Below, piece after piece: positions 20,676 through 56,023 of a stretch of 64,000 bases of DNA (the stretch's first letter is position 1; every line of letters begins with the position of its first letter). Source of the DNA: Acidimicrobiia bacterium (GTDB taxonomy: Bacteria; Actinomycetota; Acidimicrobiia; Spongiisociales; ZC4RG35); the NCBI GenBank assembly GCA_033720975.1, contig JAWWBL010000001.1, forward strand, positions 8,611 through 72,610, read 5' to 3'. The position numbers and the translations under genes are program-made. The notes beneath the pieces are model-generated. The model worked only from the letters and a program-made list of their open reading frames with translations. It was not told the DNA's origin and searched no databases.

Positions 20676-22238
20676 ATGGCTTTCAAAATCACATACGCAA
20701 CGATGTCGGCCGACAACGAGGAGCTGAACACTGCGTACGAGAAGGCAGTGGTTGAGGTCGAGTCGAAATTGGGCCAGACCCACGGGGTCATAGTCGACGG
20801 CGAGTCACGCACCGATCGCGAGCTCTACGAGGAGTTGTCCCCGCTCGACCGAGACATCCTCGTCGGACGCTATGCCCAGGCGACCGAAGAGGACGTTGAT
20901 GATGCGGTGGCAGCGGCGAAGCGGTTCGGGCCTGAGTGGGAGAACGTGGGGTGGGAGGCGCGGAGAGATCTGATGCTCCGTGCCGCTGACATCATGGAGG
21001 AGCAGACCTTCGAGATATCCGCGCTCATGTCCTACGAGATCGGGAAGAGCCGTCTCGAGGCGCTGGGAGATGTCGCGGAAACGGTTGAGTTCTTCCGCTA
21101 CTACTCGAGCCAGATCACCGACCACGACGGATTCGAGATCGAGCTGAACGCGCTCGGCCCCAACGAGAAGAACACCTCGGTTCTCAGGCCCTACGGCGTG
21201 TGGGCCGTCGTGGCGCCGTTCAATTTCCCGATGGCCCTGGCAGCGGGCCCATCCATCGGCGCGCTGATCACAGGAAACACCGTTGTGCTCAAGCCTTCCA
21301 ACACCGGCGCCCTGATGGCTTTCGAGTTCTATCGGGTAATGCGCGAGGCCGGCCTGCCTCCTGGCGCTCTCCACATTCTCTCGGGCGCGGGGAGTGTCGC
21401 CGGGGAGTTGCTGACCCACCACGACGACGTGGACGGCATCACCTTCACGGGGTCCTATCCGGTCGGCATGCACCTGCTGAACACGGCGAGCGCCAAGCGG
21501 CCCAAGCCCGTCTCTTGTGAGATGGGTGGGAAGAACCCCGTCATCGTCACCAAATCCGCCGACCTCGACACGGCCACCCAGGGGATCATCAGGGGGGCTT
21601 TCGGGCTTAGCGGTCAGAAGTGCAGCGCCACCTCCCGGGTATACATCGAAGACGACGTATACGACGAGATGGTCGACCGTATCGTGGAGGCGACGGAGTC
21701 CCTGAAGGTGGGAAGCCCCTTTGAACGGGACACCTTCACTGGTCCTGTCATCGATCGACGAGCAGTCGAGCGTTTCCAACGCTCCGTCGAGGAAGTCGAG
21801 AAGTCGGGCGGCGAGGTGCTCGCCGGTGGAGAGGTCCTCACCGACGGCGACCTCGTAAGGGGGTACTTCGTCGAGCCGACCGTGGTGACGGCACCCCTCG
21901 ACTCGTGGATCTGGCGCGAAGAGCTCTTCATGCCGTTTCTCACGGTCACCAAGGTCAGAAGCCTCGATGAGGGCATCGCCCTCTCCAACGACACTGAGTT
22001 CGGCCTCACAGCAGGGCTGTTCTCCAGCGATGACGAGGAGATCGAGAAGTGGTTCTCCCGCATTCAGGCGGGGGTGACATATGTCAACAGGGCCGCCGGC
22101 GCGACCACCGGAGCGTGGCCAGACATTCAGTCCTTCGGAGGATGGAAGGGATCGGGAACCTCAGGAGCGGGTGGTGGCGGTCCGTGGTATCTACGTCAAT
22201 ACCTCAGGGAGCAGTCCCGCACCCTGATCAGGCCCTAA
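20676..22238 (+). CDS. L-glutamate gamma-semialdehyde (1-pyrroline-5-carboxylate) dehydrogenase, ALDH superfamily
   Basis: The N-terminal pattern through ETVEFFRYYSSQ parallels RocA/PruA-type P5CDH. ALDH catalytic region FGLSGQKCSATSR and a nucleotide-binding GSxxVG-like motif are present. Confidence 0.75.
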   Translation: MAFKITYATMSADNEELNTAYEKAVVEVESKLGQTHGVIVDGESRTDRELYEELSPLDRDILVGRYAQATEEDVDDAVAAAKRFGPEWENVGWEARRDLMLRAADIMEEQTFEISALMSYEIGKSRLEALGDVAETVEFFRYYSSQITDHDGFEIELNALGPNEKNTSVLRPYGVWAVVAPFNFPMALAAGPSIGALITGNTVVLKPSNTGALMAFEFYRVMREAGLPPGALHILSGAGSVAGELLTHHDDVDGITFTGSYPVGMHLLNTASAKRPKPVSCEMGGKNPVIVTKSADLDTATQGIIRGAFGLSGQKCSATSRVYIEDDVYDEMVDRIVEATESLKVGSPFERDTFTGPVIDRRAVERFQRSVEEVEKSGGEVLAGGEVLTDGDLVRGYFVEPTVVTAPLDSWIWREELFMPFLTVTKVRSLDEGIALSNDTEFGLTAGLFSSDDEEIEKWFSRIQAGVTYVNRAAGATTGAWPDIQSFGGWKGSGTSGAGGGGPWYLRQYLREQSRTLIRP

Positions 22239-23308
22239 CCCTCCTGGAGTCTGATGGTGAGCCCGTCCGGATCGATGATCTCGAGATAATCCTCTCGTGC
22301 GTCTGGTACGACCCCGATCGTGCCCAGATGGTCCTTCCAGCGGCTCAGATCTTCCACCTGAAAAACGAGGGCCTCGGGCCGGTTTGAAACACCTTCTATC
22401 AATTCGATCTGACGACCCTGACTCGCTTCGACCACCGCGGCGTCGCCATCCCGACTCCGCGGGACCCGGGTGAACCCGAGCTTGTCGATGTAGAAATCGA
22501 TCGCCTGCTCCATGGAGCTGACGCCAATCGCGGTTCGCACTGCCGTCACCCCACCTGGAGCGACCGACGGCCCTCGCCCCGCCAGGACCTCCTTGGCCTC
22601 TTCGACCGTGAACCTCCCTGCCGTCACTTCGCGGCCCACGACGACCGCCCCCAGACGGCGGCCGGAGCTTTCGAGCTGAGTGAGCCTCGTGAGGTCCTCG
22701 AGGTTGCGGACTCCCCCGGAGGCAATCACCGGCTCCTCGACGATGTCCATCGCCTCGGCAAGGATCCGGTAATTGGGTGGTTCGGAGAGGGCGTCGCGAC
22801 CCGCCTCGGTTATGAGGAAGGCAACAGCGCCGGCCGAGGACATCTCGATGAGGACCTCTTCGAGGAATCGACCGCTGTTCTTGGTCCATCCTCGTGTCGC
22901 CAGCTCGTCGTTGTCCCGAACGTCGAGCGAGACGGCGATCTTCCCGGGATGATCCCGGCAGAGGTCCCACACCATCAGCTGGTTCTCGATGGCGGCGGTA
23001 CCCATGACGATCCGCCAGGCGCCGAAGTCGATGAGCCGTTCCGCTTCGCCCTCGGAGCGCACGCCACCGGCGAGCTGGACCGGGATGTCTACCGATTCGA
23101 CGATCCGCGAAAGCAGTTCTCTGTTGCGGTAGTCGCCGTACGCGGCAGCATCGAGATCGACGATGAGGAGGGCGTCCACACCCTGCTGCTCCCAGTTCTT
23201 GGCACGGCTTATCGGGTCGTTGTCGAGGGGGATCGCGTCGGAGATGTCGCCGTGTGGGAGCCGCACCGAAAGCCCACCGAGAATGTTGATGCGGGCATAC
23301 AGATCCAT
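22235..23308 (-). CDS. HisA/PriA-like (beta/alpha)8 isomerase fused to a C-terminal VOC/glyoxalase-like domain
   Basis: MDLYARINILGGLSVRLPHGDI ... VDLDAA ... IPVQLAGGVRS ... VIASGGVRNLEDL follows the HisA layout. C-terminal ~110 aa (MEQAIDFYIDKLGFTRV ... LEIIDPDGLTIRLQE) are glyoxalase/VOC-like. The track ORF runs to 23896; that N-terminal stretch is a non-coding-like extension. An alternative ATG lies at 23332. Confidence 0.65.
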   Translation of the reverse strand: MDLYARINILGGLSVRLPHGDISDAIPLDNDPISRAKNWEQQGVDALLIVDLDAAAYGDYRNRELLSRIVESVDIPVQLAGGVRSEGEAERLIDFGAWRIVMGTAAIENQLMVWDLCRDHPGKIAVSLDVRDNDELATRGWTKNSGRFLEEVLIEMSSAGAVAFLITEAGRDALSEPPNYRILAEAMDIVEEPVIASGGVRNLEDLTRLTQLESSGRRLGAVVVGREVTAGRFTVEEAKEVLAGRGPSVAPGGVTAVRTAIGVSSMEQAIDFYIDKLGFTRVPRSRDGDAAVVEASQGRQIELIEGVSNRPEALVFQVEDLSRWKDHLGTIGVVPDAREDYLEIIDPDGLTIRLQEG

Positions 23309-23360
23309 GAAGAGACCGTACCGGCCCTTCATTTCTACCGGGTTAACAAGGTCGAAACTG

Positions 23361-23415: not shown

Positions 23416-25221
23416 TCAGGCGATCCCGAGCGCCTCTTCGGCAGCGTCGAGGGTCTGGCCTCCGTCGAGAACCGGTGCAAACAAGTCGCCGTACCGCTGA
23501 AGCCGGTCCCATAGGTTGGCGATGGTGATCTCGCCGTTTGCCACGGAACCGACCTCGTCCCATGTCAAAGGAACTGATACGGGCGCACCCGGCAGCGGGC
23601 GGACTGAATAGACCGAGGCGACCGTCTGGCCCGAAGCGTTCCGGTTGTGATCGATGAAGACCTTTCCCTTTCGCTTCGGTTTCTCCCAGTCCATCGTGAT
23701 GTCGTCGGGGTTGGCTGCGGCGAGATAGGTACCCACCTCCCCGACGAAACGGCGAACTCTCGAGTAATCGTGCACAGGGTCCAGCGGGACATAGACATGC
23801 AGCCCCTTCGAGCCGGAGAGCTTGGGATATCCCTTGAGGCCCAACTGCCCTAGGGCAACGCTGAGCAGCTTCGCCCCGGCGCACACCTGGTCCCAATCAG
23901 ATCCATCGGCGGGGTCGAAGTCGAACACGGCATAGGAGGGCATTTCGAGTGACCCCTCGGCCGAGTGGAAGGGATGGAACTCGATACACCCCATGTTGGC
24001 GAACCACATCACCGCCTCGGCCGAGTCGGCGAGGAGAAAGTCGATCACCCCACCCTGGGAGTCCGACTCAACCGGAGTCGTCCGCATCCAGTCTGGCTGA
24101 TGGCCTGGAGCCCTCTTCTCATAGAAGGAAGGGCCGCCAATCCCGTCGGGGTATCGCGACATCGAAATCGGACGGCCCGCCAGATGGGGAAGCAGCACTG
24201 GTGCCACCGATGTGTAGTACTGGATGAGGTCGCCTTTGGTGTAACCCTCATCGGGGAAGAACACCTTGTCGATGTTGCTGAACGTGATGGGGCGGTCGAT
24301 GGCAAGAGGCACAAAACGTTCACCATCCTTGGAAACCCTGACTGGGTTGGGAAACTCGATTGGTGCACTTGCCAAGGGACGCCCATCCGTAGCGCCAACG
24401 CTCCCGATGTGAGCCTGGATCTCCTCCCAGATCAGCCCATGGCTGGCGTTGTCTCGCGCCTCGGAGATGAGGACCATCGGCATCGCCATCTGCTCGGCGG
24501 CCCTGATCAATGGCCCGACCCGCAAACTCCCCTCCCCATAAGGGACGTGGCGGATCTCCCCTGACTTGCCGAACTCGTTGTCGGAGAACTGGGCTTGGAG
24601 GGGGGTGATCATCCATCCAGGGAAGCTGTCGCGGACGAAGCTCAACACAGACTCGAAGGCATCCTGGGAGATCAGCCCGCCCTGGGTCATGGCGTGGATG
24701 TGGGCCCAGTCGACCACCGGCCTGACAAATGAGAACTCTGCCGCCAGTTGGGCGATGTCGCCGAGGGAGCCGAACTGGCCCCTGTTGCCAGCCGTCTCCA
24801 GGCCCAGCCCCACCCCAAGGTTCTCGATCTTGGCCGCTATGAATTCGATGCGGGAACGCACGCGATTCATCAGCACGGCGGGCTCCTCCCCATGGGTGGC
24901 GCCAAAGTGAGCAACGATGACCGGTGCCCCCAGGGCACGGCCCAGCTTCATGGTGTGCTCGAGAGCATGGGCCGACTGCCGGCCGCGCTCCTCGTCCTCG
25001 ATGGTCAGGCCAACGAAATATGGGGCATGCACCGACAACCGGATGCCCCGCTCGGCAGCGAGCTCCCCGAATGCCTCGCAACGCTTCTCCTTCCAGGGGA
25101 AACCCTGGGTGAAGGGAAGCTCCAGCGCACGGTGACCGTGCTCAATCAGGCCGTCCAGGAACGAGACGTCATCCCCGTCGTCGGGAGGCAGCTCAGAAAT
25201 GCCGAATCGCAGCGAGAGCAT
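23416..25221 (-). CDS. Fusion protein: N-terminal endonuclease IV (Nfo)-like AP-endonuclease TIM barrel + C-terminal LigD-type polymerase (primase-polymerase, PolDom) domain
   Basis: N-terminus: SVHAPYFVGL, LETAGNRGQFG, VDWAHIHA and RHVPYGEGSL parallel the Nfo metal-ligand blocks (HxSYLINL, ENTAGQG, DTCH, HxxLGEG). C-terminus: KVFFPDEGYTKGDLIQYY, SGSKGLHVYVPL and KVFIDHNRNASGQTVASVYSVRPLPGAPVSVPLTWDEV are hallmark LigD-Pol/Prim-Pol motifs. Confidence 0.8.
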   Translation of the reverse strand: MLSLRFGISELPPDDGDDVSFLDGLIEHGHRALELPFTQGFPWKEKRCEAFGELAAERGIRLSVHAPYFVGLTIEDEERGRQSAHALEHTMKLGRALGAPVIVAHFGATHGEEPAVLMNRVRSRIEFIAAKIENLGVGLGLETAGNRGQFGSLGDIAQLAAEFSFVRPVVDWAHIHAMTQGGLISQDAFESVLSFVRDSFPGWMITPLQAQFSDNEFGKSGEIRHVPYGEGSLRVGPLIRAAEQMAMPMVLISEARDNASHGLIWEEIQAHIGSVGATDGRPLASAPIEFPNPVRVSKDGERFVPLAIDRPITFSNIDKVFFPDEGYTKGDLIQYYTSVAPVLLPHLAGRPISMSRYPDGIGGPSFYEKRAPGHQPDWMRTTPVESDSQGGVIDFLLADSAEAVMWFANMGCIEFHPFHSAEGSLEMPSYAVFDFDPADGSDWDQVCAGAKLLSVALGQLGLKGYPKLSGSKGLHVYVPLDPVHDYSRVRRFVGEVGTYLAAANPDDITMDWEKPKRKGKVFIDHNRNASGQTVASVYSVRPLPGAPVSVPLTWDEVGSVANGEITIANLWDRLQRYGDLFAPVLDGGQTLDAAEEALGIA

Positions 25222-25270: not shown

Positions 25271-25343
25271 GGGTCCCTAGCTCAACTGGCAGAGCACCGG
25301 GCTTTTAACCCGTTGGTTGTGGGTTCGAGTCCCACGGGACCCA
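25271..25343 (+). tRNA. tRNA-Lys (anticodon TTT)
   Basis: Cloverleaf folds by hand. Acceptor GGGTCCC/GGGACCC, D-arm GCTC...GAGC, anticodon stem CGGGC/GCCCG with loop CTTTTAA, T-arm GGGTTCGAGTCCC. CCA is not encoded. Confidence 0.85.
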
Positions 25344-25381
25344 CAGCACTGTCCCGCCCGATTCGTCTCCGGATCCGGACT

Positions 25382-37282: not shown

Positions 37283-37744
37283 GTGTTGCGGCAGGCACAT
37301 CATTCGTACTCTCAGGCCATGGAGGAACGAGGATCTGTCCTGGCCCGCAGGTCGCTCCTGATCATTGGAGTGCTAATGGCTCTTGCTGGCCTTTACATCG
37401 TGGTCCAACCGGTCGATGCCAACGACTTCCAGGGAACCACCGGCGTGGTGTGGTCCGACTTCCAGAATGCCAACCCAGAGCCGGCTGCGTACCTGGAGAG
37501 GGAGGGACGTCTCCTCGGGGTCTCTTTCGCGTTTTTGGGAATCGTGGCGGCCGGGATGTCGGCAACGGTTCTCCGGAGGAACGATCGGAGCGCCTGGATC
37601 GTTGCCTGGTTCCTCCCCTTGACCCTTGCTAGCGCCGCCGCGGTTTTCTTCGGTGGCGACGGTGCGATGCTGGGCGCCTTCTACGCAGTTGCCGCGCTGA
37701 CTGCCGGAACCTTGGTGGCTATCGGAACCCGAACGGCGAGCTAG
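37283..37744 (+). CDS. Hypothetical membrane protein
   Basis: 153-aa ORF with 4 hydrophobic helices. Confidence 0.4.
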   Translation: MLRQAHHSYSQAMEERGSVLARRSLLIIGVLMALAGLYIVVQPVDANDFQGTTGVVWSDFQNANPEPAAYLEREGRLLGVSFAFLGIVAAGMSATVLRRNDRSAWIVAWFLPLTLASAAAVFFGGDGAMLGAFYAVAALTAGTLVAIGTRTAS

Positions 37745-40700
37745 GCCCGAGCCCTTTCGGCCTCCTCGAGTCCCTCGATGTCGTCCAACTGATGCAACAG
37801 TCGGGTCGCGCCAATCCGGGAAGCTGTGGATCTGGCGGCTTCCACTATCTCTGAGAAACGCTGATCCCCCTGATCGACAACCGCAGCAAGGTCGACCCGC
37901 GCTTCGAGCCCCACATACGTCTGGTCATAGCGGTCACAGATCGTCACGGCGGTCGCAAAGTGGTTGGCCGCTTCATCTGGTTCGCCCCTGGCCACGGACA
38001 TGTGCCCCAGGGCTCGAGCTATTCCAGCCTCGGGAAGGCTCCCAGTACCTCGCTCACTACCGTCGATGAGAGCACTGATCCTCTGAGTCTCGCCGAGCGA
38101 GGCGAGCGGTCCCGTCACGTATGGGATAAACATGTCTCGGTGAATGCCGATCGCATCCGATCCGAACCGGTCAGCAAGTGTGAGCATCCGTGACGTGTCG
38201 GCCGACGGAGCGAAGACGGTCACACCGAGCGCAAGGGTTGGACCCAGCGTCTGCTGCTCCCCGGTGCCGGTCGCGAAGGCAATGTGCTCATCCCACTCTC
38301 GACGGACATCCTCTCCCCGAACGAACCTCATCCAGTTCCTTTGAATCCTTATAACCTGACCCGCCTGGCTACCGCCGCGTTCGTCATCCGACCGAATCAG
38401 CTCGTTCGCGAGCGACATGCTCTCGTCCCAGTCACCGGTCCATAGGAGAATCTCCGACTTCGTCAGCTTCGCCCACTCCTCATTGGTGGGCAGGCCGCGC
38501 TCGACCGAGATTGCGAGTGCCTCGTCGATGAGCGGAACCGCCCGAGCGGGCGAACCGACCATGTAGTGGAGCGTGGCGAGATTGTTTCGGATCCGCATCA
38601 TCAGACCGGAGAAGTTGCCCTCATCCGCCATCTGCATGGCGCGCATCATCCCGTCGAAACCCCCATCTCCCTGCCAGTATGAGGAACGGGCTAGGAACTC
38701 GGCCTTATTCTCCGCCGATCCGTGGGCCTCTATCAGTGGGGCAATCCGCTTGCTCTCCGGCAGAGACTCGGCCGTGTCGCCCTTGAGGTCGAGGAGTGTG
38801 TAGCGGTTGAGCATCGCCTGCGCCTTTGCTTGGCTATCAGGCCGGTTTGAGAGAAGGCGGGCCGCCCGGTCCGCCTTCTCGAACGCCTCGTCGACCTCCC
38901 CTCTCCACCAGAGCCAACTCGACATGTCTCCCAACGCGAGGGCTTCGCCCTCGCGATCATCGGCCTCGTGGAACAGCCGAACTGCCTCGTCGAGCAGGCG
39001 CAGCCCGCCATCCACATCGTCCTGGTCAAGCACCCCTATCCATCTGAGGGCCTCGGCTCGGTCCAGTGGGGACATCGCGGCTTCTGCAGCCTTGTGGTAA
39101 TAGGCTATTCCTCGGCGCGGATCTAGCTCCCTTGCGCGCTCAGCGGCCTGCATGAGGGCTCGATAGGCACGCTGCCGGAGCTCCTCATCTGGGTCCTGGG
39201 TAAGGGTTATGGCCTCTCCCAGGTGATAGGCGAGTAGCTCCGATACGTCAACGACTCTCTCTCCGCTGACCGTCTCGATCCATCTGGCTGTCGCCTGGTG
39301 GAGATGTGCCCGGTCGTCTCGGGCCAGACGCCCATAGGCCACGTCCCTCACCAGGGCGTGAACGAACGCATATTCCTCTTGTCCGTGCATCGACGGGTCG
39401 CGTATTGGCCGGATCAGCTCTCGGCGCATCAGCTCACGCAAGGCCCCTCGCGAGTGAGAGGACGGCCTCAGCGCGGCAACCGCGCCCGACCAGAAGACCT
39501 TGCCCACAACTGCCGCAGCTTGAAGAAGGTCCTTCTCCTCACCCTCGAGAAGGTCCAAGCGGGCCCCGATGATGGCCTGGACCGAGTCCGGCAGACCGAG
39601 ATCGCTGATTCGGCCGGCTTCGTCTAGCAAGTTCGCCTCTTCTGCCAGCCGAACGAACTCGGTCACGTAAAGAGGGTTTCCGCCTGCTTTCTCGAGGATC
39701 ATCTGCTGGGAGTCGGCAGGCAGCACAGCCCTCTCGAGAAGTGCGGCAAGAAGCTGAGCGGCGGCGGCGTTGGCCAGCGGGGAGAGCGTCAAAGTTACTG
39801 CGTTCCGAACTCCTCCCCCCCAATCAGGCCGACTCGACAAAAGCTCAGGCCGAGCGGCTGTAACCAGGAGGATCGGCACATCGATCGCCCATTCGGCGAG
39901 ATGCTCCAGGAATTCCAGCAGGGCATCGTCGGCCCAATGAATGTCCTCAACCACCAGCACGAGAGGGTTTTTCTGGGCCATGGCACTGAAGAAACGGAGC
40001 CATGCCGAGAACAGCTCGCCTTGCTCGACGGATTGGTCATCGGTGAAAGTGCCCGCCAAAGGGGAAAGACGTCTCTGCACCCATTCTGCCTGTGCCTCCT
40101 CGGCGATGAGGCTCACCACCGCGTGTCGCAGCTTGCGGCTGGCTTCCTCATCGGAATCAGTCTCCAGGATCCCTGCTTGGGCCTTGACGATCTCACCAAG
40201 GGCCCAAAAGGTGATGCCCTCTCCGTAGGGCAGGCAGCGACCCTGTTTCCACCACAGGACGTCCGGCATCCTGTCGAGGACCGCTTTGAACTCGTGGAGA
40301 AGCCGACTCTTTCCGGAGCCTGGCTCGCCAATGATCGTGATCATCTGGACTGTCGAAGCCGTTTGGGTTCGATGAAGCGAGTCAACCAAGACCGCTAACT
40401 CCCGGTCCCGGCCGACAAACGGGCCCTTGTGGCGCTCCGTGACCGCAACCCCCTGGCGCGCCCTGGCGTGGGTCGCTTGCCAAATCGCAATCCGTGCGGC
40501 CTTTCCTTTCAACTCGACCGATTCGAGGTCGACGAACTCGATGGCGGCTCGGGTCGCCAGGTAGGTGCGCTCATCGACGACTATCCCGCCTTCGGGAGCC
40601 ACCGCCTCGAGCCGGGAAGCAGTATTGACGACATCGCCCACGATCGACTCCCGGTCCTTGTTGTCCGGATCGAGCTGGACGATGGCCTCCCCAGTAGTGA

Positions 40701-41196
40701 CGGCGATGCGCACGGATAGCCCGAGATCAGGCTGAGCCTCGTTGAGGGCGCCAATTTGCTCCTGGATTCGAAGCGCTGCGCGCACAGTGCGCTCCGGGTC
40801 ATCCTCATGGGCGGTGGGTACACCGAACACGGCGAACACACCGTCACCCATGAGCTTTTCGACCTTCCCACCGTGAGCCTCTACCTGCTCACGGACTGTG
40901 CGGTGATACACGGTCAGGCGCGCCCTGACGTCTTCAGGATCGGATCGCTCGGTCCTCGCGGTGAAGCCGGCGAGATCGGCGAACAGCACCGAAACCAGTT
41001 TCTTCTCCTCGGCGGCGCGATGGGCATCGTCAGGCTTGGAGGCGAGAGACTCCCCACAGTTGGCGCAGAACTTCGCACCCGGCGCGGCCTCGGCGCCGCA
41101 GTTGGGGCAGGCGCGGGCCAGTGACGATCCGCAATTCGCACAGAACTTTGCGCCCTCCGCTGCCTCTGCACCACAGGAAGGGCAACTGACATTCAC
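37741..41196 (-). CDS. Multidomain signalling protein: tandem zinc-ribbons + class III adenylate/guanylate cyclase + STAND/AAA NTPase + TPR repeats (1151 aa)
   Basis: N-terminal CPSCG...CANCG x2. Cyclase block SVLFADLAGFTARTE ... KLMGDGVFAVFG. Walker A IIGEPGSGKSRLL and Walker B LVLVVEDIHWAD. The C-terminal ~600 aa are helical TPR-like repeats. Confidence 0.85.
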   Translation of the reverse strand: MNVSCPSCGAEAAEGAKFCANCGSSLARACPNCGAEAAPGAKFCANCGESLASKPDDAHRAAEEKKLVSVLFADLAGFTARTERSDPEDVRARLTVYHRTVREQVEAHGGKVEKLMGDGVFAVFGVPTAHEDDPERTVRAALRIQEQIGALNEAQPDLGLSVRIAVTTGEAIVQLDPDNKDRESIVGDVVNTASRLEAVAPEGGIVVDERTYLATRAAIEFVDLESVELKGKAARIAIWQATHARARQGVAVTERHKGPFVGRDRELAVLVDSLHRTQTASTVQMITIIGEPGSGKSRLLHEFKAVLDRMPDVLWWKQGRCLPYGEGITFWALGEIVKAQAGILETDSDEEASRKLRHAVVSLIAEEAQAEWVQRRLSPLAGTFTDDQSVEQGELFSAWLRFFSAMAQKNPLVLVVEDIHWADDALLEFLEHLAEWAIDVPILLVTAARPELLSSRPDWGGGVRNAVTLTLSPLANAAAAQLLAALLERAVLPADSQQMILEKAGGNPLYVTEFVRLAEEANLLDEAGRISDLGLPDSVQAIIGARLDLLEGEEKDLLQAAAVVGKVFWSGAVAALRPSSHSRGALRELMRRELIRPIRDPSMHGQEEYAFVHALVRDVAYGRLARDDRAHLHQATARWIETVSGERVVDVSELLAYHLGEAITLTQDPDEELRQRAYRALMQAAERARELDPRRGIAYYHKAAEAAMSPLDRAEALRWIGVLDQDDVDGGLRLLDEAVRLFHEADDREGEALALGDMSSWLWWRGEVDEAFEKADRAARLLSNRPDSQAKAQAMLNRYTLLDLKGDTAESLPESKRIAPLIEAHGSAENKAEFLARSSYWQGDGGFDGMMRAMQMADEGNFSGLMMRIRNNLATLHYMVGSPARAVPLIDEALAISVERGLPTNEEWAKLTKSEILLWTGDWDESMSLANELIRSDDERGGSQAGQVIRIQRNWMRFVRGEDVRREWDEHIAFATGTGEQQTLGPTLALGVTVFAPSADTSRMLTLADRFGSDAIGIHRDMFIPYVTGPLASLGETQRISALIDGSERGTGSLPEAGIARALGHMSVARGEPDEAANHFATAVTICDRYDQTYVGLEARVDLAAVVDQGDQRFSEIVEAARSTASRIGATRLLHQLDDIEGLEEAERARA

Positions 41197-53669: not shown

Positions 53670-54680
53670 ATGAAGGCGTGGCAGCTGACCGACACCAACG
53701 GCATCGACTCCTACGTGCTCAATGACGTGCCCGAGCCCGAACCCGGGCCGGGGGAGGTGAGGGTTGACATCAAGACCGCTGGGCTCAACCACCTCGACAT
53801 CTGGGTGTCGATGGGTCTCCCCGCACCCGAGCACCTTCCACACACCACGGGGGCTGACGCCGCGGGGACCATCGACGCCATTGGCGAGGGTGTCGACGGA
53901 TTCGAGATCGGCGACGAGGTGATAGTCGATCCCTCTCTGTCGTGCGGACGCTGCGAATTCTGTCTCAATGACGACATCGTCTACTGCGAGGACTTCGGGA
54001 TTCTCGGTGAGCACGCCCCGGGAACCTTCACAGAGAAGATCGTGATCCCCACGATCAACGCTGTCAGGAAACCGAAGAGGGTCGAATGGGAGGAAGCCGG
54101 AAGCTTTGGGCTGGCCAATGTCACCGCTCTGCGGAAGCTCGAGAAGGCAAGGCTGAGCAGAGGCGAGGTGGTGCTCGTGGTTGGGATCGGTGGAGGAGTC
54201 GCCACCGCCTCGATGCAACTGGCGATGGCGTTCGGAGCCAAGGTCTACGTCACCTCCCGATCCCAGAAGAAGATCGACTGGGCCGTTGAGAACGGCGCGG
54301 CGGGCGGATTCGACTCGGCCGGCGAGTTCGGCAAAGAGATGGCTGCTCTGGGTGGAGCGGACCTCATCATGGAGAACGTCGGGCCAGCCACCCTCAAGCA
54401 GTCGATGCGGGCTGCCAAGAAGGGGGGACGCATCGCCATCTCAGGTGGGACCAGCGGATCGAGATTCGAGCTCACCATCCCGATCCTGTTCTTCCGCCAA
54501 CTGGAGCTCGTGGGATCGTCCATGGGCAACCATGCCCAGTTCGCCAGGGCCCTCAACTGGATCAGGCTTGGCAAGGCCAAGGCAATAGTCGACCGCGTGT
54601 TCCCCTTCGACCAGCTACCCGAGGCGCTTCGTTATCTGGACTCGGGCGAGCAGATCGGAAAGGTCGTCCTAGCCCGCTAG
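53670..54680 (+). CDS. Zinc-binding alcohol dehydrogenase / quinone oxidoreductase (MDR superfamily)
   Basis: MKAWQL start, GEVRVDIKTAGLNHLD, structural-zinc Cys cluster CGRCEFC, and the Rossmann motif VVLVVGIGGGVATAS. The track ORF beginning at 53136 is a spurious extension overlapping the thioesterase. Confidence 0.8.
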   Translation: MKAWQLTDTNGIDSYVLNDVPEPEPGPGEVRVDIKTAGLNHLDIWVSMGLPAPEHLPHTTGADAAGTIDAIGEGVDGFEIGDEVIVDPSLSCGRCEFCLNDDIVYCEDFGILGEHAPGTFTEKIVIPTINAVRKPKRVEWEEAGSFGLANVTALRKLEKARLSRGEVVLVVGIGGGVATASMQLAMAFGAKVYVTSRSQKKIDWAVENGAAGGFDSAGEFGKEMAALGGADLIMENVGPATLKQSMRAAKKGGRIAISGGTSGSRFELTIPILFFRQLELVGSSMGNHAQFARALNWIRLGKAKAIVDRVFPFDQLPEALRYLDSGEQIGKVVLAR

Positions 54681-56023
54681 TTCAGAGAAGGCGCCTCGAC
54701 CGAGTACAGCTGCCACTCCCCGTCGAAGCCTTTCAAATGGTGGGATCCTCGATCGGCAAAGACGATGTCAGATCCCACGACCAGGTCACGAACCGTCCTA
54801 GAGACCATGATCTGGCCCGGTGCGGCCGCCGACATCACTCTCGACGCCAGGTGCACCGCCACACCTCCGACGTCGTCGCCCCGCACCTCAACCTCGCCCG
54901 CGTGGATACCGGTCCGAAGCGTGACATCGACCCTGGCTATCTCCCGGCTCAAGCTCTCAGCACAGCGGATCGCTCGTCCGGGGCCGTCGAAAATCGCCAA
55001 CGCTCCGTCGCCGGTGCTCTTGACCAATTCGCCGCTGTTGATCTCCACGATTCGTCGCGTGGTCGAGTCGTGCACATCGAGAAGGGCGCGCCACTCGCGG
55101 TCACCCAGTTGCCCGGCACGGCGGGTTGAGTCGACGATGTCGGTGAACATGACCGTCGCCAAACGCCGGTCGGTCACGCCTGGTGACGCTTCGGACCCCA
55201 CGACGAACTTCTCGATGATCGAGAGGACTTCGTCCGGGTGTTCCCAGTACGGAGTGGCGTCCGTGCCTTCGAGCTCGACGAATTCGGCGCCTTCGATGCG
55301 CTCGGCGACGTATCTGCCGAGCTCAATGGGGATCGCAGGATTGTCCTTGACATGGGTGACCAACGTCGGCACCTGGATCGCGGGTAGCAGCGCGCGTGCA
55401 TCGGAACTGAAGTTCTGCTGCATGTAGGCTCGCGCTGCGGCTGGGCTAGCCACCGAGCGCTGGACCTTCGCCATCCAGTTCATGAACGCACGGTCGCCTA
55501 CCTTGCTCGGTATCCAGAGGCTGGCGCCATCAGGTGTGCCCCATGCGTCACCGATCCTCCGGCTCAATTCCTCGACAGCGTCGGCGGGATACCCAATTGG
55601 GTAATCGTCAGTCGCGGAGAGGCGGGCATAGGTGCAATGGAGAACCAGGGAGTGCACTCGTTCTGGGTGATTGGCCGCAAAAAGCAGTGTGGTGGGTCCT
55701 CCATCGCCGCCACCCAAGAGGGTCGCGTTCTCGCTCCCAACGGCGTCCATCACGCATTCAAGCTCCTCGACAAATGACTCCCATGGGGGAAGGGCGTCGA
55801 GTGGGACTGGATCAGAAGCCCCCGAGCCTCGTCTGTCGAAAACGATCGTCCGGCCCAACCGAGACGCCTTCTGATAGAAGAGCCGGATTCCGGGGTCCTC
55901 CCACTCGATGTCGATGGAGCCCCAAAAACCTGCATTTACGACCAGGTCGGGCGGGCCCTCCCCCATCGTCATGTAATAGATGGCCTGATCGCCGAGGCGG
56001 GCGTAACCGGTTAGCGGCTCCAT
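54677..56023 (-). CDS. Alpha/beta-hydrolase domain fused to a class III adenylate/guanylate cyclase domain (LipJ-like architecture)
   Basis: N-terminal alpha/beta hydrolase fold (VFDRRGSGASD). C-terminal cyclase block VMFTDIVDSTRRA ... KSTGDGALAIFDGP. Confidence 0.8.
   Translation of the reverse strand: MEPLTGYARLGDQAIYYMTMGEGPPDLVVNAGFWGSIDIEWEDPGIRLFYQKASRLGRTIVFDRRGSGASDPVPLDALPPWESFVEELECVMDAVGSENATLLGGGDGGPTTLLFAANHPERVHSLVLHCTYARLSATDDYPIGYPADAVEELSRRIGDAWGTPDGASLWIPSKVGDRAFMNWMAKVQRSVASPAAARAYMQQNFSSDARALLPAIQVPTLVTHVKDNPAIPIELGRYVAERIEGAEFVELEGTDATPYWEHPDEVLSIIEKFVVGSEASPGVTDRRLATVMFTDIVDSTRRAGQLGDREWRALLDVHDSTTRRIVEINSGELVKSTGDGALAIFDGPGRAIRCAESLSREIARVDVTLRTGIHAGEVEVRGDDVGGVAVHLASRVMSAAAPGQIMVSRTVRDLVVGSDIVFADRGSHHLKGFDGEWQLYSVEAPSLN

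Follow-up and report, generated by a model that had tools for sequence, protein, structure and literature searches.

A single open reading frame in the DNA of an uncultured Acidimicrobiia bacterium encodes both an endonuclease-IV-like TIM barrel and a LigD-type primase-polymerase. This raises the questions whether the fusion is real, whether both halves have kept the residues needed to act on DNA, and what the two might do together. The gene lies in a 64-kb window, by which we mean the whole stretch of 64,000 nucleotides that was analysed.

Integrity of the fused gene

The original prediction of one 601-aa reading frame with two domains was borne out, and the strand, which it had not given, can be added (Table 1). 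Every motif block that it quoted was found again in the translation. The proposed comparison of each half with Pfam gave matches to both expected families, PF01261 (AP_endonuc_2) at aa 27-259 with E 7.6e-28, and PF21686 (LigD_Prim-Pol) at aa 328-581 with E 7.5e-87. The predicted lack of an attached ligase or phosphoesterase domain was confirmed as well, as the Pfam search of the 601-aa protein, together with NCBIfam for ligase, returned no match to a ligase or phosphoesterase family.

Table 1. Features of the fused gene and its product (nucleotide positions refer to the window)
Feature	Nucleotides	Strand	Residues	Remarks
Complete CDS, two-domain protein	23416..25221	minus	601 aa + stop	ATG at 25221, stop codon 23416-23418; ORF list and translation
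Endonuclease-IV-like TIM-barrel domain	24406..25221	minus	aa 1-272	
Inter-domain linker	24292..24405	minus	aa 273-310	FPxP-like stretch, P291, R310, predicted beta-hairpin aa 295-305
LigD-type primase-polymerase (AEP) domain	23467..24291	minus	aa 311-585	PF21686, TIGR02778, structure alignments
Short C-terminal tail and stop codon	23416..23466	minus	aa 586-601	
N-terminal block HAPYF			aa 65-69	
N-terminal block ETAGNRG			aa 142-148	
N-terminal block DWAHIH			aa 171-176	
N-terminal block HVPYGEG			aa 225-231	
Putative metal ligands of the N-terminal domain			H65, H105, E142, D171, H174, Q209 (His in many relatives), E222, H225, E254	
C-terminal block KVFFPDEGYTKGDL			aa 319-332	
C-terminal block SGSKGLHVYVPL			aa 469-480	
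C-terminal block KVFIDHNRNASGQTVASVYSVRP			aa 520-542	
C-terminal block GAPVSVPLTWDEV			aa 545-557	

The fusion might in principle be an artefact, with two neighbouring genes merged by a sequencing error or joined in a chimeric assembly. A handful of database entries (P0130, P0143, P0144, P0152, P0155 and P0146) seem to hold split or truncated versions, and in P0146 the polymerase gene is found 11 nt downstream. However, the C-terminal tails are scrambled in most of these entries, and the contig of P0146 is labelled with 3x coverage, both of which are typical of frameshift errors. An identical protein is present on a 157-kb ENA metagenome scaffold, and there are at least 236 full-length colinear homologues with 40-87% identity, counted as independent fusion clusters from NCBI, ENA, JGI and Logan assemblies. 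A scan in which each GTDB species was represented by a single genome shows both domains in the same frame at 78 of the best 80 loci; the remaining two are cut off by contig ends, so that the fusion is uninterrupted in 78/78 assessable genomes. All of these are metagenome bins, with titles that refer mostly to Acidimicrobiia or Actinomycetota. Two genes separated by a frameshift in the true sequence, which had been named beforehand as the outcome that would speak against the fusion, were thus not what we found. We reject the artefact, to which we assign a practically negligible probability: the split versions come from error-prone contigs, and the intact fusion recurs across the clusters and genomes counted above.

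The linker provides further evidence against joined genes, since it is conserved and predicted to be ordered. P291 and R310 are near-invariant, and the FPxP-like stretch is conserved, in the alignment of fused homologues (A3). The linker is disordered when the N-terminal domain is modelled by itself (pLDDT 44-57), and has pLDDT 75-92 in the full-length AlphaFold model (overall pLDDT 93.7, pTM 0.89). Because this model is high-scoring and has an ordered linker, it suggests that the domain arrangement of the protein is fixed. A Foldseek search found no PDB chain spanning both domains (best TM-score normalised to the query, 0.47). Four further clusters have the reverse domain order, in which the TIM barrel comes after the polymerase. 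As the fusion is conserved down to 40% identity and the reverse order exists, selection appears, judging from the sequences, to act on the pairing itself and not on one given junction.

The nuclease half

The TIM-barrel fold of the N-terminal domain is nearest to solved endonuclease IV structures. Among solved structures, the best sequence match of its family profile is MJ1311 (E 2.5e-20), followed by endonuclease IV structures (E 5e-16 to 2e-8), whereas sugar epimerases are matched with E 5e-3 or worse. An assignment to a sugar isomerase family had been given in advance as a result that would undermine the prediction; instead, endonuclease IV homologues match far better, and the Nfo-specific ligands align and are invariant. 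The sugar isomerase/epimerase branch of PF01261 is therefore rejected on profile, fold and ligands. The description of the barrel as Nfo-like stands with respect to the endonuclease-IV-type fold and the Nfo-specific ligands, but not in the sense of a canonical bacterial Nfo, since the domain scores 34.8 bits against the TIGR00587 (nfo) cut-off of 129.65. Its stand-alone relatives also stay under this cut-off, with 20-62 bits. The archaeal PfuAPE/MJ1311 branch fits better, and by sequence the domain belongs to it as a divergent endonuclease IV homologue. It aligns end to end with one archaeal member, P0310, with 24% identity and E 1e-28. No linkage to repair genes was seen around the stand-alone relatives P0191 and P0199.

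Alignment to E. coli Nfo pairs H69, H109, E145, D179, H182, D229 and H231 of the latter with H65, H105, E142, D171, H174, E222 and H225 of the fusion protein, with Glu in place of Asp229. This direct alignment stops before E254, which is placed opposite Nfo E261 indirectly and aligns with E261 of P0310, the position matching E261 mutated in PfuAPE from P. furiosus; H70 and H110 of P0310 likewise correspond to residues mutated in PfuAPE. Altogether, eight of the nine trinuclear-site positions carry a ligand-type residue, and none of the eight varies among 79 fused homologues. The Nfo DNA-inserting pair Tyr72/Leu73 is represented by Y68/F69, invariant across the fused family; in the profile alignment the first 68 residues are unaligned to Nfo, and the Arg37 region is outside the comparison. 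The exception among the ligands is the equivalent of Nfo His216, which is Gln209, and the adjoining His is Gln211. Among 242 fused proteins, the motif in this region is QxQ in 146, HxQ in 68 and HxH in 25. Gln209 may thus change or weaken the second metal site. Sugar epimerases require the E-D-H-E metal tetrad only, and it is within this tetrad that the one changed ligand falls, and not among the Nfo-specific ligands, which are kept.

The change at His216, shared with most fused homologues retrieved, could mean that the barrel is not a working nuclease at all, but is degenerate or has been given another use, such as binding DNA or damage as a platform, mediating oligomerisation, or acting as an enzyme on a small molecule or sugar phosphate. 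Catalysis on DNA would then be left to the polymerase alone. The score below the threshold of the curated nfo model points in the same direction, as does the fact that MJ1311, which among solved structures is nearest in sequence, was deposited as a 'D-tagatose 3-epimerase-like protein' whose function is unknown. There is also a precedent in P. furiosus, where the endonuclease-IV-like paralogue PF1383 has neither DNA-binding nor AP-endonuclease activity (PMC2770678). However, PF1383 lacks both histidines (H70, H110) as well as a counterpart of Glu261 (PMC2770678), and these three are invariant in the fused family over 40-87% identity, together with D171, H174, E222, H225 and Y68. PfuAPE itself has AP-endonuclease, 3'-5' exonuclease and 3'-phosphatase activities, and its single-ligand mutants H70A, H110A and E261A each retain some activity (PMC2770678). 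The position of the altered ligand in the epimerase tetrad, with the Nfo-specific ligands retained, also argues against a loss of nuclease function, which we regard as quite improbable.

The polymerase half and its surroundings

The LigD-Pol/Prim-Pol identity of the C-terminal half, already suggested by the original prediction, is secure, as both models are matched above their cut-offs: PF21686 with 291.5 bits against 27.4, over the whole 254-position profile, and ligD_pol TIGR02778 (NCBIfam) with 247 bits against 214.7. Foldseek TM-scores of the domain, normalised to the targets, range from 0.82 to 0.91. Residues were mapped by alignment to 5dmu, 5op0/6sa0 and 2iru, with roles after PMC7442782. 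The catalytic residues D140, D142 and D231 of Prim-PolC correspond to D434, D436 and D524, a triad that is invariant in the fused family. In motif II (SGSKGLH), H475 aligns with Prim-PolC H182 and is not invariant. The 5'-phosphate pocket N20/K23/Y25/K35/P65 has its counterpart in N316/K319/F321/K329/P358, with K329 and P358 invariant and N316 and K319 conserved in at least 90% of the family. The template wedge I73/Y74 becomes F366/Y367, and R224 becomes R517. Loop 3 of Prim-PolC (Msm residues 313-333), which is required for short-gap synthesis, is absent: Prim-PolC residue 292 is the last to be aligned, and the aligned region is followed by 16 residues only, too short for a loop of this type. 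Prim-PolC identity is rejected, as Loop 3 and a LigC neighbour are both lacking.

The absence of the feature that specialises Prim-PolC for short gaps, the passing of the ligD_pol equivalog-domain threshold, and the identity of the best solved match, 5dmu, a Methanocella NHEJ polymerase, are all consistent with a role in Ku-dependent NHEJ. The gene would then be part of a LigD in pieces, with Ku and an ATP-dependent ligase elsewhere in the genome; the polymerase would work on the ends of double-strand breaks, with the endonuclease IV domain as the end cleaner in place of the phosphoesterase. The known processing of abasic sites near breaks by LigD and Ku (PMC6547435, PMC4245934) fits this reading. 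On the other hand, separate LigD modules are usually operonic (PMC5663958), and neither Ku nor an ATP-dependent ligase is found in the 64-kb window or among the Pfam-annotated neighbours, up to 10 kb on each side, of 5-6 related fused genes (five in the comparison that weighs against NHEJ). We therefore consider an NHEJ function unlikely.

There is no glycosylase gene in the window or the related neighbourhoods examined, and no LigC-type operon with a ligase in any neighbourhood examined. A role in anti-phage defence is rejected, as there was no PADLOC match.

A proposed repair route and its relation to known systems

Of the explanations considered, we favour a bifunctional repair enzyme for single-strand lesions, which incises or cleans and then fills the gap; judged by sequence, this is probably what the gene encodes. 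The sequences show which families the two domains belong to, that catalytic and DNA-binding residues are retained in both halves, and that the fusion is conserved; from this we infer both activities, their order, and the coupling of incision to filling. In the first step, the N-terminal domain would act as a metal-dependent phosphodiesterase that cuts 5' of an abasic site or strips a 3' block (3'-phosphate, 3'-unsaturated aldehyde or 3'-phosphoglycolate) left by glycosylase-lyases or oxidative strand breaks. Either action would yield a 3'-OH. The C-terminal primase-polymerase would then anchor on the downstream 5'-phosphate and fill a gap of 1-3 nt from this 3'-OH, perhaps incorporating ribonucleotides like its relatives. 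Finally, the nick would be sealed by a ligase encoded elsewhere. The endonuclease IV module would thus heal 3' ends, a task that falls to the phosphoesterase domain in canonical LigD.

The two branches of the first step differ in what they demand. A 5'-deoxyribose phosphate remains after incision by endonuclease IV. B. subtilis LigD removes this group with a lyase located in its ligase domain (PMC4770248), and since such a domain is absent from the fusion protein, the AP-incision route depends on a further factor. For the 3'-cleaning route, no extra factor is needed for this purpose. Precedents for cooperation of the two activities come from mycobacteria, where repair after FPG was reconstituted with EndoIV, Prim-PolC and LigC1, with EndoIV as the best end-processing nuclease (PMC5663958), and from B. 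subtilis, where nfo and ligD show epistasis in spore resistance (PMC4770248). Besides the 5'-deoxyribose phosphate left by AP incision, the points that we count against the bifunctional repair enzyme are Gln209, the sub-threshold nfo score, and the absence of an adjacent ligase, Ku or glycosylase gene.

In the literature that could be searched, we found no description of an endonuclease IV-LigD-polymerase fusion, which agrees with the failure of the original prediction to recognise the architecture. It is apparently undescribed, although the proteins are already deposited in databases under generic or misleading names, such as 'non-homologous end-joining DNA ligase' and 'bifunctional NHEJ protein LigD'. 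The former name is wrong, because the fusion protein has no ligase domain, and the analysis exposes a systematic misannotation of ligase-free proteins with LigD or ligase names.

The wider reading, to which we give somewhat less than an even chance, is that of an unrecognised, self-contained enzyme that first cleans and then fills, found mainly in Acidimicrobiia/Actinomycetota bins. If it is true, a rigidly attached endonuclease-IV-type module would hand the fresh 3'-OH straight to the AEP polymerase; base-excision and single-strand-break repair in the lineage would have a primase-polymerase, not Pol I, as its dedicated polymerase; and the LigD phosphoesterase module would be evolutionarily replaceable by an unrelated nuclease fold. 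The link between LigD/LigC-type primase-polymerases and base-excision repair has so far come from work on mycobacteria and Bacillus, by pull-downs, reconstitution in vitro and epistasis. A conserved natural fusion in both domain orders is independent evolutionary evidence for two activities on the same substrate, and at the level of sequence it supports the idea that endonuclease IV and a LigD-type polymerase repair damaged bases together. The protein could also serve as a compact single-polypeptide model for the passage of a 3'-end from a nuclease to a polymerase site, and may be of interest to enzyme engineers.

Among known systems, the N-terminal domain shares its TIM-barrel fold with archaeal PfuAPE (PF0258) and MJ1311 (PDB 3wqo), and the HAPY, H-x-G, E-T-x-G, D-x-A-H, GE-x-x-H and S-E motifs with the archaeal homologues. 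In PfuAPE-like P0310, all metal-ligand positions are in register and identical except Gln209. However, the archaeal homologues stand alone as proteins of about 270-290 aa, none of them polymerase-fused, and have His-x-His where the fusion protein has Gln209-Ala-Gln211; moreover, PfuAPE works with PCNA. Compared with bacterial Nfo (E. coli 1qtw, T. maritima 2x7w), the N-terminal domain has a ligand-type residue at eight of the nine ligand positions and conserved Tyr72/Leu73 equivalents, but the identity is only 15-18%, and His216 and Asp229 are replaced by Gln and Glu.

The mycobacterial LigC/Prim-PolC/EndoIV complex combines the same two activities in sequence, with filling anchored on the 5'-phosphate (PMC5663958, PMC7442782). 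The polymerase domain is ~35% identical to Prim-PolC, with the catalytic residues, pocket and wedge in common, but it is without the Loop 3 of the latter, and Loop 1 Arg97 is not conserved. The mycobacterial enzymes are separate proteins held by LigC, whereas the fusion is covalent and has no ligase gene nearby. Canonical LigD (POL-PE-LIG, as in M. tuberculosis and P. aeruginosa) likewise unites a polymerase and a 3'-end-processing nuclease in one polypeptide. The fusion protein differs from it in having no ligase domain and no adjacent Ku gene, and in the fold of its nuclease, which is a phosphoesterase in LigD and an endonuclease IV TIM barrel in the fusion.

The fused gene, its relatives and its neighbourhood

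The predicted fusion of an endonuclease-IV-like AP endonuclease with a LigD-type primase-polymerase is encoded by a single open reading frame (see table), and all motif blocks quoted in the original prediction are found in its translation. Pfam recognizes both halves, and Pfam and NCBIfam scans gave no match to ligase or phosphoesterase models outside the polymerase region, in agreement with the expected lack of both domains. The exact protein is also on record from a 157-kb metagenome scaffold in ENA.

Two protein searches retrieved full-length two-domain homologues in identity tiers of 75-87%, 50-63% and about 40-43%, with at least 236 homologues colinear over more than 560 residues. Scanning a single genome from each GTDB species revealed 548 stretches that encode relatives of the N-terminal domain. 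The best 80 of these all originate from metagenome bins, with titles that refer mostly to Acidimicrobiia or Actinomycetota and sometimes to other phyla. The two domains are consecutive and in the same frame in 78 of these 80 loci, and the remaining two are cut by contig ends. The gene is thus not a frameshifted pair, a possibility that had been raised with the prediction. A handful of database entries look split or truncated, mostly with scrambled C-terminal tails and in one case on a contig of 3x coverage. Such entries, the locus L095 included, are probably frameshift errors and not true split genes. The reverse domain order, with the polymerase first and the TIM barrel second, occurs in four protein clusters (P0207 and P0346-P0348). 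From the identity tiers, the in-frame loci and the reverse-order clusters, the domain pairing appears to be a conserved and selected feature. The explanation of the long reading frame as an artefact is refuted by the homologues, the in-frame genomes and the existence of both orders.

Of 12 related loci that were checked, 9 have a tRNA-Lys(ttt) upstream of the fusion gene, between about 50 nt and about 5 kb away. The genes in between vary, and in one locus (L002) a phage-type integrase lies beside the tRNA. This side of the gene has the appearance of a variable or integration region associated with a tRNA. Of the 66 related species-level genomes that extend far enough, 63 have a HisA/PriA-like gene downstream; in a more distant relative its place is taken by a TrpD-like gene. 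In the window, the C-terminus of the HisA/PriA-like protein matches weakly to the glyoxalase/bleomycin-resistance fold (E 2e-4). The two genes either form an operon or merely share a conserved order. The rest of the window contains ordinary metabolism and signalling genes, and PADLOC reported no defence-system match.

Features of the fusion gene, its neighbourhood and related loci
Feature	Sequence	Position	Strand	Remarks
Fusion ORF	window	23416-25221	minus	ATG start, 601 residues
PF01261 (AP_endonuc_2, 'xylose isomerase-like TIM barrel')	fusion protein	residues 27-259		Pfam E 7.6e-28
PF21686 (LigD_Prim-Pol)	fusion protein	residues 328-581		Pfam E 7.5e-87, whole 254-position profile covered
tRNA-Lys(ttt)	window	25271-25344	plus	divergent, 49 nt upstream of fusion ATG
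HisA/PriA-like gene	window	22235-23332	minus	His_biosynth E 1.7e-48; 83 nt downstream of fusion, same strand
1151-aa protein	window	37741-41196	minus	double zinc ribbons, adenylate/guanylate cyclase domain, AAA_16 ATPase, TPR repeats
Second cyclase	window	54677-56023		joined to alpha/beta hydrolase
TIM-barrel gene, split-looking version	L095	5001-5837		contig labelled 3x coverage
Primase-polymerase gene, split-looking version	L095	5848-6807		11 nt from TIM-barrel gene
Reverse-order fusion	L087	10001-11848		primase-polymerase, then TIM barrel
Stand-alone AP_endonuc_2 gene	L087	11932-12735	convergent	second such gene, just downstream of reverse-order fusion
Reverse-order fusion	L089	10001-11803		primase-polymerase, then TIM barrel

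Identity of the N-terminal domain

The Pfam match alone does not settle the identity of the N-terminal domain, because PF01261 spans endonuclease IV and sugar isomerases. Among NCBIfam families, the deoxyribonuclease IV (nfo) models score best for this domain, and likewise for six relatives scanned separately; UV-damage endonuclease and CbiR phosphodiesterase match more weakly, and none of the scores reaches its curated cut-off. When a profile of 28 family members was searched against PDB sequences, it matched MJ1311 of M. jannaschii (E 2.5e-20), endonuclease IV structures from eight organisms (E 5e-16 to 2e-8) and UvdE (about 4e-9), with sugar epimerases reaching only 5e-3 or worse. Relative to E. 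coli Nfo (sequence verified against 1qtw), the metal ligands H69, H109, E145, D179, H182, D229 and H231 correspond to H65, H105, E142, D171, H174, E222 and H225, and the DNA-inserting Tyr72/Leu73 to Y68/F69. E254 was set opposite Nfo E261 via the related protein P0310, because the direct alignment stops before that residue. All these residues are invariant across 79 fused homologues of 40-87% identity. H65, H105 and H174/E222/H225 correspond to the ligands that set trinuclear phosphodiesterases apart from E-D-H-E sugar enzymes, a distinction that reportedly derives from the Nfo structure of Hosfield et al. 1999. The family ranking, the profile matches and the retention of the putative metal ligands assign the domain to the nucleases within PF01261, and not to the sugar isomerases or epimerases that had been considered as the competing assignment.

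A family search over 1.84 billion representatives identified 728 relatives of the domain, most of them stand-alone proteins of 270-290 residues with 25-35% identity. Among them is P0310, which aligns end to end with the domain (24% identity, E 1e-28). The residues that were mutated in PfuAPE (PF0258), an AP endonuclease of P. furiosus, fall precisely on His70, His110 and Glu261 of P0310, and the termini of P0310 are similar to those specified by the PF0258 primers in the literature; we infer that P0310 is a Thermococcales orthologue of PfuAPE. PfuAPE acts as an AP endonuclease, a 3'-5' exonuclease and a 3'-phosphatase, and the same study names MJ1311 as the endonuclease IV homologue of M. jannaschii (PMC2770678). 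Judged by this kinship, the N-terminal domain belongs to the archaeal-type branch of endonuclease IV, and not to canonical bacterial Nfo.

One ligand is discordant. The equivalent of Nfo His216 is Gln209, and two residues further on Gln211 stands where relatives have histidine. The archaeal-type branch has His-x-His at these positions, whereas the fused family mostly has Gln-x-Gln or His-x-Gln (QxQ 146, HxQ 68 and HxH 25 among the 242 full-length fused homologues retrieved), despite the invariance of the other ligands. The substitution may indicate an altered metal site, and the variation a lineage-specific change in metal use. It lowers the confidence in predicted activity and would fit a non-catalytic or repurposed domain. 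Such a loss of function is unlikely, since the residues missing from the inactive P. furiosus paralogue PF1383 are all present. Moreover, the PfuAPE single mutants H70A, H110A and E261A are still partly active, and it takes the triple mutation to abolish activity (PMC2770678), so that Gln209 may be compatible with catalysis.

The polymerase domain and the whole-protein model

The C-terminal half is a standard LigD-type archaeo-eukaryotic primase-polymerase, as anticipated. In addition to the PF21686 match, it passes the NCBIfam domain model ligD_pol (247 bits, cut-off 214.7) and resembles the Methanocella NHEJ polymerase 5dmu (203 bits, target-normalised Foldseek TM 0.90), M. smegmatis Prim-PolC 5op0/6sa0 (180 bits, 0.82-0.84) and M. 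tuberculosis LigD PolDom 2iru (157 bits, 0.90-0.91). Residue roles were taken from Prim-PolC (PMC7442782) and transferred by alignment. The counterparts of the catalytic aspartates D140, D142 and D231 are D434, D436 and D524. The residues of the 5'-phosphate pocket (N20, K23, Y25, K35, P65) align with N316, K319, F321, K329 and P358, those of the template wedge (I73/Y74) with F366/Y367, the gate residue R179 with K472, and R224 of Loop 2 with R517. The fused family retains the aspartates, K329, P358, F366, Y367 and R517 without exception; conservation is at least 90% for N316 and K319, and F321 and K472 reach neither level. Unlike Prim-PolC, the fusion protein does not conserve Arg97 of Loop 1 and lacks the defining Loop 3 (residues 313-333), which cannot exist because the alignment stops at Prim-PolC residue 292 with 16 residues remaining.

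From 79 sequences, AlphaFold gives a full-length model with a mean pLDDT of 93.7 and a pTM of 0.89. The linker, disordered in the model of the N-terminal domain only, becomes ordered (pLDDT 75-92), with a hairpin at residues 295-305, which suggests a fixed arrangement of the two domains. In the PDB, Foldseek found no chain spanning both (best query-normalised TM-score 0.47).

Possible role and relation to known repair systems

For both halves, sequence comparison establishes the domain identities and the retention of putative catalytic and DNA-contact residues, and the fusion has been conserved long-term in both domain orders. It is a new architecture assembled from two known repair modules. 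As originally supposed, it seems undescribed: no account of an endonuclease IV-primase-polymerase fusion was found in the full-text literature searched, and a survey of LigD domain combinations in metagenomes does not mention it (PMC10140301). The proteins are already deposited in public databases, in part under ligase-type names ('non-homologous end-joining DNA ligase', 'bifunctional NHEJ protein LigD') that are wrong, because there is no ligase domain.

The resemblance to an NHEJ polymerase and the absence of Loop 3 could point to Ku-dependent end joining. However, operonic Ku or ligase is entirely lacking in the neighbourhoods examined, which makes this role rather unlikely: the 10-kb flanks of the gene in the source scaffold contain no Ku, ATP-dependent ligase or glycosylase gene, and neither do the surroundings of five related fused genes, which include the 41% tier and two genes in reverse order. 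In the favoured scheme of gap repair, the endonuclease IV module would create a 3'-OH, either by cutting on the 5' side of an abasic site or by stripping a 3' block that stems from a lyase or from oxidative breakage. The polymerase would then dock on the downstream 5'-phosphate and fill the short gap, and a ligase encoded elsewhere would close the nick. The 3'-cleaning route seems more self-consistent, because its product would be a 5'-phosphorylated gap of the kind recognised by the polymerase pocket. Incision at an abasic site would leave a 5'-deoxyribose phosphate; the lyase that removes it in B. subtilis LigD sits in the ligase domain (PMC4770248), which the fusion protein lacks.

The fusion provides independent evolutionary support for the link between primase-polymerases and base excision repair. 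With 3'-cleaning, it would follow the same sequence as the mycobacterial in vitro reconstitution, in which FPG, EndoIV, Prim-PolC and LigC1 act in turn and EndoIV is the best end processor (PMC5663958). For B. subtilis, epistasis between nfo and ligD in spore survival is documented (PMC4770248). Compared with LigD, the endonuclease IV module would take the functional place of the phosphoesterase domain.
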